DNA of 64,000 bases, taken from the sequence record MZ189261.1; one strand, written 5' to 3'. This stretch comes from Escherichia phage S143_2. The position numbers and the translations under genes are program-made. The notes below the pieces were generated by a model that worked only from the letters and a program-made list of their open reading frames with translations, had not been told where the DNA came from and did no database searches. Shown here one piece after another: positions 28,934 through 41,849 of the stretch (position 1 is its first letter; every line of letters starts with the position of its first letter).

Positions 28934-29242
28934 TTACATAAGAAGCAAACGTTCCACCGGAGTACCATCAACCGAAATTACTTTATCAAGGCGGAAAGAA
29001 CGCCACTGACCTAACTTGGTGTCGAATGCTCGAGCTGATTCACGAGGTTCATAACGAACTTCTGTTGCTGGATTGTTATTTTCATATTTGACTTCAAGTT
29101 CATCGCGCGAAGCAAACATAGTGCGTACCTCGCCGTTAGCCTTTTCAAATACAACACAATGAACGCCTACAGACAGAATAGTTTTAATACGTTCACGAAG
29201 AACCATAGTTTCTTGTTCAGTTAAAATCATATTATTCACCAC
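28934..29242 (-). CDS. Hypothetical protein, 102 aa (31.1 position)
   Basis: ORF between gene 31 and cd. Confidence 0.5.
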   Translation of the reverse strand: MVNNMILTEQETMVLRERIKTILSVGVHCVVFEKANGEVRTMFASRDELEVKYENNNPATEVRYEPRESARAFDTKLGQWRSFRLDKVISVDGTPVERLLLM

Positions 29243-29813
29243 AAAAGTTTCGGATTTGTTCCCAATTCAGAGAACGAAGATTATTACGAGAGTACTGAAT
29301 TACTTCAATACCGGCTTGTTTTAGAATGTCTGCCCAATTTTCAGGAGATCTGTCATATAATTCTGCGTATACAACCTTTTTAATACCTGACTGCGTAATA
29401 GCTTTAGTGCAATCAGGACATGGAGAAAGCGTCGTATATAACGTAGCACCTTCAATAGAATTACCTTTACGAGCTGCAAACAAAATTGCATTCAATTCTG
29501 CATGGATTTCATTATTAGCAGACCATGCACTATGAGCGGCCCGATGTTCTTTAGCCAAAACAAAATTATCTGCCCGTCCAAATGCTGTAGTGCCTTCTTT
29601 ATGTCCAGCAACGATGACCGGACTTGGTTTATTCTTCAACCAACCGTTTTCGGATGCATGTTCGCAACAGTTTGTACCACCTGAAGGAGAGCCATTATAA
29701 CCTGTAGAAATAATGCGTCCATCTTTTTCAATGACTGCGCCAACTTTCCATGAACAACATTTTGATTCTTGAGAAATCAGATATGCAATCTGAAGGTATG
29801 TGCTAGCTTTCAT
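29232..29813 (-). CDS. cd: dCMP deaminase
   Basis: 193 aa (T4 Cd 193 aa); zinc-deaminase motifs HAE and PCxxC (SPCPDC). Confidence 0.9.
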   Translation of the reverse strand: MKASTYLQIAYLISQESKCCSWKVGAVIEKDGRIISTGYNGSPSGGTNCCEHASENGWLKNKPSPVIVAGHKEGTTAFGRADNFVLAKEHRAAHSAWSANNEIHAELNAILFAARKGNSIEGATLYTTLSPCPDCTKAITQSGIKKVVYAELYDRSPENWADILKQAGIEVIQYSRNNLRSLNWEQIRNFCGE

Positions 29814-30805
29814 TATTGAACCTTATTAATATAAGTTAACAGCTCTTTAGTTTGTTCCCAACTGATGCACGCATCGGTAATGGAAACGCCATAGGACATA
29901 TTATCAGAAATTTTTTGATTTCCTTCATGTAGGAATGATTCTATCATAATTCCTTTGACCAAATCATTAGCTGCTAAATTTTTACCAATACCAATTTGAT
30001 TGCTATAATACCCATCAGCGTTTGCGTGGCTACAGTCAACCATTACATAATGATTCAGACCTAATGCACTTGCTTTGTTAGAAGCTTCTTGAATATCAGA
30101 AGAATGATAGTTCGGGCCGTTAGTCCCGCCACGCAATACGATATGCGTATTCTGATTACCTTCAGCTTCAACAATGCCTACAGTACCATCGACGTCCATA
30201 CCCATATACCGATGAGGCCAGGCGGCACTATACATCGCGTCTGTAGCTACTTTAATAGAACCATTGGTTGCGTTCTTGAAGCCTACGCACATCGGTAGAC
30301 CTGAAGCAATTTCACGATGTGTCTGACTTTCAGTCGTACGGGCGCCAATAGCAACCCATGAGAAAATACCAGAAAGATACTTAATCGTGAATGGGTCTAA
30401 TACTTCAGTTGCTAATGGAAGTCCCATACGTAGAAGTTTACGACACAATGTTCGTGCAACTATAAGACCGTGGTTCATATCAAAACTTCCGTCAAGATAT
30501 GGATCATTTACAAGACCTTTCCAACCTACGGTAGTTCGAGGCTTTTCAAAATAAACGCGCATCACTAACAGAACATTAGGAAGACGAGTTTGAAGTTCAG
30601 CCAGACGTTTGCCGTATTCAACAGCAGCAATAGGGTCATGAATTGAACAAGGACCTACAACAATAAGTTTGCGTGGGTCTTCACCGTTCATAATCGAATT
30701 AACTTGTTCGCGATGAGAAGCCACTTGTGATGCGTAAGCTTCCGACAAAGGAATAATCTCAGCCAGTTCTTTTGGAGAAATAAGTTTTCTGACGACAGGT
30801 AACAT
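29813..30805 (-). CDS. 3-deoxy-D-arabino-heptulosonate-7-phosphate (DAHP) synthase, class I (AroG/AroF/AroH-like)
   Basis: 330 aa; conserved blocks VVGPCSIHD, MRVYFEKPRTTVGWKG, AIGARTTESQ, GFKN, IVLRGG, DCSHAN, ESFLHEGNQ, SITDACI colinear with E. coli AroG; stop overlaps cd start (TAATG). Confidence 0.85.
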   Translation of the reverse strand: MLPVVRKLISPKELAEIIPLSEAYASQVASHREQVNSIMNGEDPRKLIVVGPCSIHDPIAAVEYGKRLAELQTRLPNVLLVMRVYFEKPRTTVGWKGLVNDPYLDGSFDMNHGLIVARTLCRKLLRMGLPLATEVLDPFTIKYLSGIFSWVAIGARTTESQTHREIASGLPMCVGFKNATNGSIKVATDAMYSAAWPHRYMGMDVDGTVGIVEAEGNQNTHIVLRGGTNGPNYHSSDIQEASNKASALGLNHYVMVDCSHANADGYYSNQIGIGKNLAANDLVKGIMIESFLHEGNQKISDNMSYGVSITDACISWEQTKELLTYINKVQ

Positions 30806-30925
30806 AACAATCCTTAGGAGATATAAACAGATTCTGATTCAACAATACCTTTAACCGGATTAGACAGGCTAAGTTGGTAGTGCTAAGATTTATGACCATT
30901 CTCGATAGTAATGAGATAGCTCTCA

Positions 30926-31162
30926 TTATAGTGTTCCATATACTCGAGTTGCTTCAACAAGACCATCACTGCCTAATTTAAGGCTAGTAATCTGGTCACC
31001 ATCTTTAGGATTAACGATTATGAGAAAAGAACGAGGAGATTCTTGAATAACTCGTAATGTTGCATCTTGGAAACGTTCAGACACTTTATTGATGAGTGCT
31101 TGAGCAAATTCTTTTACTTTAATCTGAAATTCGTGTACTGTAATTGGGTTTTCACTTAGCAT
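30926..31162 (-). CDS. Hypothetical protein, 78 aa
   Basis: ORF with RBS GAGGA and early promoter at 31191..31220. Confidence 0.5.
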   Translation of the reverse strand: MLSENPITVHEFQIKVKEFAQALINKVSERFQDATLRVIQESPRSFLIIVNPKDGDQITSLKLGSDGLVEATRVYGTL

Positions 31163-31190: not shown

Positions 31191-31220
31191 ATAGTATCAC
31201 AACTCCACCATGTTGTAAAC
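31191..31220 (-). promoter_or_regulatory. Early promoter (GTTTAC / TACTAT)
   Basis: Upstream of ORF 30926..31162. Confidence 0.45.
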
Positions 31221-31505: not shown

Positions 31506-31730
31506 TCAGTGCACAGTATTTACTTTAACTCGAACAACAAATCGCTCGGTTGGTTCACCTACAGGAACAAACTCTACATGATATTCACCTTTGTAACGAG
31601 TATTCAGATCATTACGAATTCCTGCGAGTTTGTTGATTAATGTAGGACTCATATTAAGTCCCACTAGTTTACGAAGCATTTTGTATGCTTCATCTTCGAT
31701 TTCATGATGTTTATCGTACATAGTTTTCAT
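31506..31730 (-). CDS. Hypothetical protein, 74 aa
   Basis: ORF in cd-pseT interval. Confidence 0.45.
   Translation of the reverse strand: MKTMYDKHHEIEDEAYKMLRKLVGLNMSPTLINKLAGIRNDLNTRYKGEYHVEFVPVGEPTERFVVRVKVNTVH

Positions 31731-40163: not shown

Positions 40164-41849
<1,686 letters not shown>

Follow-up and report, generated by a model that had tools for sequence, protein, structure and literature searches.

A 64,000-nucleotide stretch of DNA from Escherichia phage S143_2 (sequence record MZ189261.1; hereafter the window) carries on its minus strand a gene for a DAHP synthase directly ahead of cd, the gene for dCMP deaminase. The first-pass annotation of the window had assigned the open reading frame (ORF) of 330 codons to a class I DAHP synthase, and the frame is present as it described (Table 1). 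The ORF encodes a bona fide type I-alpha DAHP synthase. Its product matches the Pfam family PF00793 (DAHP_synth_1) with a score of 250.6 bits against a cut-off of 25.5 (E=1.7e-74), and the match spans profile positions 8–269 of 270. The best solved structure by sequence is that of E. coli AroF (PDB 6AGM, E=1.5e-104), and the two E-values place the match far above chance. The profile check against PF00793 and the search of phage genomes that the annotation had proposed both returned significant matches.

The phage protein exceeds the cut-off of the NCBIfam aroFGH equivalog TIGR00034 (426 bits against 173) and that of PRK12755 (454 against 343). However, its scores are below the cut-offs of the AroG equivalog NF006723 (362 against 568) and of the AroH model NF009396 (385 against 463). 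The sequence identity to the isozymes of E. coli MG1655 is 51% for AroF, 48% for AroG, and 44% for AroH, and the colinearity with AroG that had been claimed is borne out. Since the isozyme cut-offs are missed and the phage enzymes branch apart from AroF, AroG, and AroH, as described below, the protein is, judged by its sequence, not orthologous to any single host isozyme.

The residues of the active site were compared in an alignment of 25 sequences of the phage clade and 98 cellular sequences, which comprise the 95 nearest database matches and E. coli AroF, AroG, and AroH. The metal-binding tetrad C53/H260/E289/D311 (Cys61/His268/Glu302/Asp326 of AroG) is invariant in all 123 sequences. The phage protein also contains R83, K88-P89-R90-T91, A155, R156, K177, and R225, equivalent to AroG R92, K97-P98-R99-T100, A164, R165, K186, and R234, which in AroG structures are the ligands of phosphoenolpyruvate (PEP) and erythrose-4-phosphate (E4P). 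These ligands are conserved in the phage and cellular sequences, with the exception of T91 (AroG T100), which is replaced by Ser in four cellular enzymes. The KPR(T/S) motif separates DAHP synthases from KDO8P synthases. Seven of the eight motif blocks listed in the first-pass annotation read as quoted (VVGPCSIHD, KPRTT, GARTTESQ, GFKN, DCSHAN, ESFLHEGNQ, and SITDACI), and the eighth, given as ILRGG, reads IVLRGG, which is a trivial difference.

The AlphaFold2 model of the protein, built on a 49-sequence alignment, has a mean pLDDT of 92.1 and a pTM of 0.92. In Foldseek comparisons with the DAH7PS enzymes of N. meningitidis and E. coli it superimposes with TM-scores of 0.94–0.96 and root-mean-square deviations of 1.4–1.6 Å over about 334 columns. 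The predicted fold is a (beta/alpha)8 barrel with the additions typical of the I-alpha type: an extra pair of strands formed by residues 198–203 and 209–214, in line with the beta6a/beta6b hairpin, and an N-terminal extension, which is present in the model but shortened. The profiles, the alignment, and the model thus agree on a class I DAHP synthase with the Cys, His, Glu, and Asp metal ligands. The sequence and the model suggest that the phage protein is very probably an active, metal-dependent enzyme that would form DAHP from PEP and E4P. The only stretch of the model with low confidence (pLDDT <50) is the PRTTVG loop of residues 89–94 (window positions 30,530–30,547), which carries E4P and PEP ligands. 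The loop is presumably mobile in the solved enzymes, and therefore the low pLDDT is not a sign of degeneration.

The phage and cellular enzymes differ in the pocket that binds the feedback inhibitor. Positions known from the literature to confer feedback resistance were examined first, and a blind scan of the alignment followed. The scan selected positions at which one residue is fixed in at least 90% of the phage clade, a different residue is fixed in at least 85% of the cellular sequences, and no more than 5% of the cellular sequences carry the phage residue. Exactly six of the 330 positions discriminate phage from cellular enzymes, and all lie in one segment of the allosteric pocket (Table 1). 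Five of the six are among the 11 positions of feedback resistance or inhibitor contact drawn from PMC9529685 (Fisher p=9e-8). According to that study, the substitutions P150L, S180F, and F209A/S make AroG resistant to Phe, residues Q151/Q152 and S180/S181 touch the main chain of the bound Phe or Tyr, and a salt bridge of D155/D156 steadies the inhibitor region (PMC9529685). The sixth position, AroG T223, is two residues away from V221, of which the V221A variant is also resistant.

The conserved inhibitor-pocket residues P150, Q151, D155, S180, and F209 of AroG are not kept in the phage protein, in which AroG D146 is retained. The exchange of Gln for Lys and of Asp for Gly changes the charge of the pocket by +2. 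The five-residue signature IKGPY is present in 23 of the 25 phage sequences and in none of the 98 cellular ones; the remaining two phage enzymes have IRNPY and PKGPY. As far as could be found, this remodelling of the pocket across the phage clade has not been described in the literature.

The N-terminus of the phage protein is shortened as well. The first-pass annotation had noted that it is about eight residues shorter than that of AroG; the phage protein indeed begins eight residues later, with L2 opposite AroG I10, and the shortening extends to the whole clade. Ahead of the column of AroG L16 there are five to nine residues in the phage clade, whereas each of the 98 cellular sequences has at least 13. 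Every phage copy lacks counterparts of AroG D6/D7 and AroF N8. AroG D6/D7/I10 and AroF N8/I11 are part of an arm with which one subunit covers the inhibitor site of its neighbour. Shumilin in 2002 and Jossek in 2001 are said to have traced the roles of these N-terminal residues, through the AroG–Phe structure and the AroF N8K and delta-I11 mutants.

Table 1. Features of the DAHP synthase locus of the window; the last column gives the basis of each assignment or further details.
Feature	Position	Strand	Basis or details
DAHP synthase coding sequence, type I-alpha	29813..30805	-	ATG start, 330 codons and TAA stop at 29813-29815; ORF list
Metal-ligand codon span	29873..30649	-	C53 30647-30649, H260 30026-30028, E289 29939-29941, D311 29873-29875; also contains the PEP/E4P ligands R83, K88-P89-R90-T91, A155, R156, K177, and R225
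Remodelled allosteric-pocket segment with six clade-specific substitutions	30164..30385	-	blind scan and literature positions
I141 (AroG P150)	30383-30385	-	blind scan
K142 (AroG Q151)	30380-30382	-	blind scan
G146 (AroG D155)	30368-30370	-	blind scan
P171 (AroG S180)	30293-30295	-	blind scan
Y200 (AroG F209)	30206-30208	-	blind scan
A214 (AroG T223)	30164-30166	-	blind scan
Truncated N-terminus MLPVVRKL	30782..30805	-	alignment; AroG residues 2-9 and AroF residues 2-10 have no counterpart
cd, dCMP deaminase	29232..29813	-	Pfam PF00383, E=1.6e-26; 71.5% identical to T4 Cd
TAATG stop/start overlap of DAHP synthase and cd	29811..29815	-	TAA 29813-29815 shares its A with the cd ATG 29811-29813
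Shine-Dalgarno sequence AAGGA	30811..30815	-	5 nt ahead of the ATG
120-nt leader between cd.2 and DAHP synthase	30806..30925	-	begins with a degenerate copy of the cd start
cd.2 homolog (DUF7320), probable first gene of the transcription unit	30926..31162	-	65% identical to T4 Cd.2, E=1.8e-33; Pfam PF24005
Early-type promoter, GTTTACA, 17 nt, TG-n-TACTAT	31191..31219	-	consensus scan; between cd.3 and cd.2
19-nt imperfect direct repeat (84%), right copy	29798..29816	.	bounds the 1,113-bp indel relative to RB69
19-nt imperfect direct repeat, left copy	30911..30929	.	covers the stop of cd.2 together with another TAATG

The gene is embedded in a block of small genes that is organized similarly to that of phage T4. 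The transcription order in T4 is pseT, cd.5, cd.4, cd.3, cd.2, cd.1, cd, 31.2, 31.1, 31, rIII, and the order in the window, as established by BLASTP, is pseT, cd.4, a 74-residue ORF, cd.3, cd.2, DAHP synthase, cd, 31.1, 31, rIII. The DAHP synthase occupies the slot of T4 cd.1. The T4 record and the BLASTP order support the earlier description of the gene as accessory cargo relative to T4, which has small cd.x ORFs alone at this site. The placement of the T4 cd.x ORFs downstream of cd is ruled out, as the T4 record puts them upstream in transcription order. It was also considered that T4 cd.1 might be a remnant of a DAHP synthase, but the two have no BLASTP similarity, and Bragavirus carries both side by side.

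The stop codon of the DAHP synthase gene overlaps the cd start, as had been read from the sequence by the first-pass annotation, and the translational coupling to cd that it proposed is supported. The promoter located between cd.3 and cd.2 aligns almost base for base with RB69 and with the T4 region noted as Pe133295 (T4 record, cd.3–cd.2). The 120-nucleotide leader between cd.2 and the DAHP synthase contains no convincing match to a sigma-70-type promoter, a late promoter (TATAAATA), or a terminator; no MotA box was noted in it on inspection by eye, no pattern scan having been run. Because a conserved early promoter precedes cd.2 and no separate promoter or terminator was seen in the leader, the DAHP synthase is probably the second cistron of an early cd.2–DAHP synthase–cd transcript. 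The genes td (40,164–41,024) and frd (41,021–41,692), which the first-pass annotation had called adjacent, are on the same strand but 9–11 kb upstream, past pseT, alc, rnlA, denA, and nrdAB, and belong to a separate operon.

Three further ORFs of the minus strand lie in or next to this block. The 74-residue ORF (31,506–31,730; PHROG 3609), which is RB69ORF227c, is positioned between the cd.4 and cd.3 homologs and has no counterpart in the pseT–cd interval of T4, where cd.5 directly follows pseT. The gene after cd (28,934–29,242) encodes a WYL_2/Sm-like SH3 barrel protein (Pfam PF10902, E=1.1e-8) with 44% identity to T4 31.1; it begins with GTG and shares its first 11 nucleotides with the end of cd, and T4 31.2 is absent here. 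The start codon of a 55-residue ORF (30,759–30,926) is the duplicated ATG, whose overlap with the stop of cd.2 gives a TAATG; the ORF extends into the first part of the DAHP synthase gene in a different reading frame. Phages HX01 and 308Ecol101PP have no annotation for this ORF, which is most probably a remnant of the duplicated 5' end of cd and not a gene.

The DAHP synthase gene is already known: annotations of it exist for more than 200 phage genomes in the databases. The 5 kb surrounding it are 97–98.5% identical to many Mosigvirus (RB69-like T4-type) coliphages, for example SSE1, HX01, ST0, and phi25-307. A tblastn search finds the protein in 212 phage records, in 139 of them with at least 95% identity; most Mosigvirus records are 98–99% identical to the window protein, and phage SF is 100% identical. 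Homologs with 55–78% identity are present in phages of Enterobacter, Edwardsiella, Klebsiella, Erwinia, Providencia, Proteus, Serratia, and Acinetobacter. The records usually name the product phospho-2-dehydro-3-deoxyheptonate aldolase, DAHP synthase, aroF, or AroG. The protein matches PHROG 5045 over its full length (E=8.6e-182, 604.5 bits, residues 1–330 on profile positions 8–337 of 341), which is the family of phage phospho-2-dehydro-3-deoxyheptonate aldolases in the category "moron, auxiliary metabolic gene and host takeover". In a 2025 study of Klebsiella phages, the Kanagawavirus homolog is classed as an amino-acid auxiliary metabolic gene, and a role in the supply of aromatic amino acids is proposed without experiments (PMC11845039). 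The annotations in more than 200 genomes, the PHROG family, and this study show that the gene is not new.

The nearest proteins in the large protein database form two groups. The first is a short form of 319–343 residues, 56–98% identical to the window protein, from phage genomes or T4-like contigs. The second contains cellular enzymes of at least 341 residues from assorted phyla with identities of at most about 56%. All 200 neighbour-joining bootstrap replicates, calculated after removal of the six signature columns, group the 25 phage sequences in a single clade, and these sequences branch apart from AroF, AroG, and AroH in the phylogeny that the first-pass annotation had called for; by distance, AroF is nearer to the phage clade than AroG or AroH. 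In at least five T4-like genera the gene keeps its slot between cd.2 and cd; it follows small cd.x ORFs and precedes cd in phages Mosigvirus HX01, Kanagawavirus CIP9, Marfavirus F48, Bragavirus vB_SdyM_006, Gualtarvirus PSTRCR_121, and a metagenomic T4-like contig. The proteins of the phage genera are 53–63% identical overall, and dN/dS between genera is 0.14–0.18; within Mosigvirus the three to seven substitutions per pair are too few for an informative dN/dS. The GC content is 0.41 in the gene, 0.38 in the window, and 0.52 in the E. coli aro genes. The monophyly, the shared slot, the dN/dS values, and the GC content indicate one old acquisition followed by vertical descent under purifying selection, and the acquisition is probably older than the divergence of the genera. 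Recent capture from E. coli is rejected by the 44–51% identity to AroF, AroG, and AroH, the lack of any cellular sequence above about 56% identity, and the GC content of 0.41 against 0.52.

Two of these phages differ in the immediate vicinity of the gene. In Shigella phage vB_SdyM_006 (Bragavirus), a 112-residue homolog of T4 cd.1 (27% identity, E=1e-6) is positioned between the synthase and cd (L008, 3457–3795), and thus the synthase and cd.1 are not mutually exclusive. In Providencia phage PSTRCR_121 (Gualtarvirus), a homing endonuclease gene between the synthase and cd (L009, 3490–4056) breaks the translational coupling.

In phage RB69 (NC_004928) the gene is missing owing to an exact difference of 1,113 bp (L010, 9743–10503), which shows that the gene is dispensable. 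The cd.2 gene directly abuts cd in RB69, ECO111 5-P, vB_Eco_mar005P1, JK36, JK42, moha, and WG01/QL01-like phages, and about nine WG01/QL01-like records show the empty junction. The two BLAST segments obtained against RB69 overlap by exactly the 19-nucleotide stretch that is repeated, with a spacing of 1,113 bp, at both ends of the indel. Each copy of the repeat contains a TAATG, and the upstream copy appears to be a degenerate duplicate of the first 15 or so nucleotides of cd. The repeat is not significant by itself, because similar chance repeats occur in the same 1.3 kb, and it is meaningful only because its ends coincide with the boundaries of the RB69 indel. This suggests that the indel arose by deletion or insertion through recombination between short repeats. 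The annotated cd of RB69 is 24 residues shorter at its C-terminus than that of the window, and its last five residues differ (...ILKPSWY* in place of ...ILKQAGIEVIQ...). A link between the gene and the arabinosyl-hydroxymethylcytosine (arabinosyl-hmC) modification of DNA, which was discovered in RB69 (PMC6024577), was also considered. RB69 has arabinosyl-hmC and no DAHP synthase, so the enzyme is not needed for that modification, and neither PMC6024577 nor PMC13326640 mentions the aldolase.

The combination of an untouched catalytic core and a systematically altered inhibitor pocket is the pattern expected of a deregulated enzyme. The enzyme is probably insensitive to aromatic amino acids; the guess of the first-pass annotation to this effect is considerably strengthened by the clade-wide truncation and the six discriminating positions on the inhibitor pocket. 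It is reasonably likely that the gene provides a deregulated, early-made DAHP synthase that sustains the entry of carbon into the shikimate pathway during infection. Transcription would start at the conserved early promoter ahead of cd.2, translation would proceed in tandem with that of dCMP deaminase, and the gene, being transcribed by the phage, would escape repression by TyrR and TrpR. With the pocket rebuilt and the N-terminal arm missing, the Phe, Tyr, and Trp of the host would be unable to switch the enzyme off. One deregulated enzyme at the flux-controlling step would keep carbon flowing into the pathway, and the host enzymes from AroB to AroC would finish the route to chorismate, from which Phe, Tyr, Trp, and chorismate-derived cofactors would be made. 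The logic would be the same as in the engineered feedback-resistant (fbr) alleles aroG(fbr) and aroF(fbr).

Several observations weigh against a simple loss of feedback inhibition that benefits the phage. The residues fixed in the phage clade (Ile, Lys, Pro, and Tyr) differ from those of the laboratory fbr alleles (Leu, Ala/Ile, Phe, and Ala/Ser), and F209Y is a conservative change. Conservation in the phage clade reaches 90% or more at 15 of the 17 pocket positions, compared with 130 of 313 positions elsewhere (p=2e-4). Such strong conservation fits a pocket with a remaining role rather than one that is merely broken, which would drift; the altered pocket may lock the active state or bind something new. 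The phage enzyme has Gly at the position of AroG S211 and Pro at that of AroG M147 (AroF P148), which are the states of the Tyr-sensitive AroF type, and may on this account retain residual binding of Tyr. The cellular sequences used for the comparison, the 95 nearest database matches and the three E. coli isozymes, represent a part of the family. About 11 Mosigvirus records, including RB69, are without the gene and about 139 have it, and any benefit must therefore be conditional. No study of the enzymology, expression, or metabolites of any phage DAHP synthase was found in the full-text literature.

The AroF-type residues could also belong to an ordinary feedback-regulated, Tyr-sensitive isozyme that merely adds capacity after the shut-off of host transcription, and AroF is both the best match among solved structures and the closest isozyme in distance. 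However, Lys and Pro take the places of Q151 and S180, which bind the backbone of the inhibitor; P150, of which the P150L variant is a complete fbr allele, is Ile; and both D155 and the N-terminal arm are missing. These changes of the pocket and arm are clade-wide and occur in none of the 98 cellular sequences, which makes a regulated isozyme quite unlikely. The pocket, with its charge change of +2, might instead have been re-purposed to bind a new effector, such as an anionic metabolite or a DNA-precursor nucleotide, or a phage or host protein. Its near-invariance across genera that are only 53–63% identical is not what simple decay predicts, and the gene is probably co-transcribed and is translationally coupled with dCMP deaminase, which is itself an allosteric enzyme. 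Nevertheless, re-purposing is pure inference, and the pocket residues are structurally coupled to the active site, so that their conservation may reflect stability alone. To our knowledge, there is no precedent for a re-purposed effector site in type I-alpha enzymes, and we regard this explanation as unlikely.

The remaining alternatives accept the reaction and place its benefit elsewhere. By consuming E4P, the enzyme could shift the non-oxidative reactions of the pentose-phosphate pathway in the direction of pentose phosphates, from which nucleotides are made. The gene is on the same early strand as the nucleotide-metabolism genes cd, nrdAB, td, and frd, and cyanophage genes are known to re-route pentose-phosphate flux. 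However, each turnover would cost one PEP, many T4-like phages including T4 and RB69 manage without the gene, and sequence cannot separate substrate removal from product supply; this use of the enzyme is very unlikely. Chorismate might be channelled chiefly to p-aminobenzoate and folate in support of the td, frd, and hydroxymethylase reactions, as the first-pass annotation had speculated. A feedback-insensitive enzyme would count most when aromatic amino acids are abundant, the host enzymes are inhibited, and chorismate-derived vitamins alone are limiting, and td and frd are on the same strand. Against this, no pab or fol gene accompanies the synthase in the 33 kb inspected of a close relative, td and frd are 9–11 kb away in a different operon, and folate is recycled, not consumed, in those reactions, so that a folate-directed role is highly improbable. 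The chances are about even that the benefit of the gene is the supply of aromatic amino acids or chorismate, as opposed to E4P removal or folate supply. It is slightly favoured that T4-like phages have long carried a DAHP synthase with a rebuilt feedback site, an enzyme that is either locked on or answers a phage-specific signal.

The presence of the gene in the window changes nothing in itself, as this ordinary auxiliary metabolic gene is already annotated in Mosigvirus and its T4-like relatives. If the deregulation is real, the protein is a natural fbr enzyme, and the virus rewires the allosteric control of a central biosynthetic pathway of its host beyond adding a gene copy. Coliphages would then tune the amino-acid and chorismate metabolism of the host through allosteric release at the committed step. 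This would help to explain under which conditions the gene pays off, such as in gut-like media with abundant aromatic amino acids, in which the host enzymes are inhibited and repressed. The phage enzyme would also offer metabolic engineers a naturally optimised scaffold of a feedback-resistant DAHP synthase. The presence/absence polymorphism of Mosigvirus, a clean 1.1-kb indel, provides ready-made pairs of closely related phages.

Among known enzymes, the phage protein resembles the Tyr-sensitive AroF of E. coli (PDB 6AGM/6AGL) in its 51% identity over the full length, the metal tetrad, the KPRT and GARTTESQ motifs, the fold, the Gly at the site that sets Tyr or Phe sensitivity, and the Pro at AroF P148. 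It differs from AroF by the lack of residues 2–10, by the replacement of P151, Q152, D156, S181, and F210 with I, K, G, P, and Y, and by a shorter C-terminal tail, and E. coli AroF is no nearer to it than assorted environmental bacteria at 52–56% identity. The fbr alleles of AroG (P150L, S180F, F209A/S, Q151 variants, and D146N) share with the phage enzyme substitutions at positions 150, 151, 180, and 209 and the unregulated entry step that is presumed for the phage. In contrast to these alleles, the phage enzyme has other replacing residues, six co-fixed changes, and an N-terminal truncation, and it stems from a natural lineage shaped by purifying selection rather than from one mutation made in the laboratory. 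The annotated homologs from phages SF, HX01, ST0, phi25-307, CIP9/KLB31, F48, vB_SdyM_006, and PSTRCR_121 have the same gene, slot, and signature residues and differ in nothing substantive, so that the window copy is an ordinary member of the group. Classical auxiliary metabolic genes of phages, such as cyanophage psbA, talC, zwf/gnd, and CP12, are host-derived genes for control-point enzymes that are made during infection and sustain a host pathway. The phage DAHP synthase differs from them in the pathway that it serves and in that its allosteric control has apparently been removed or rewired, beyond the duplication of a host function.

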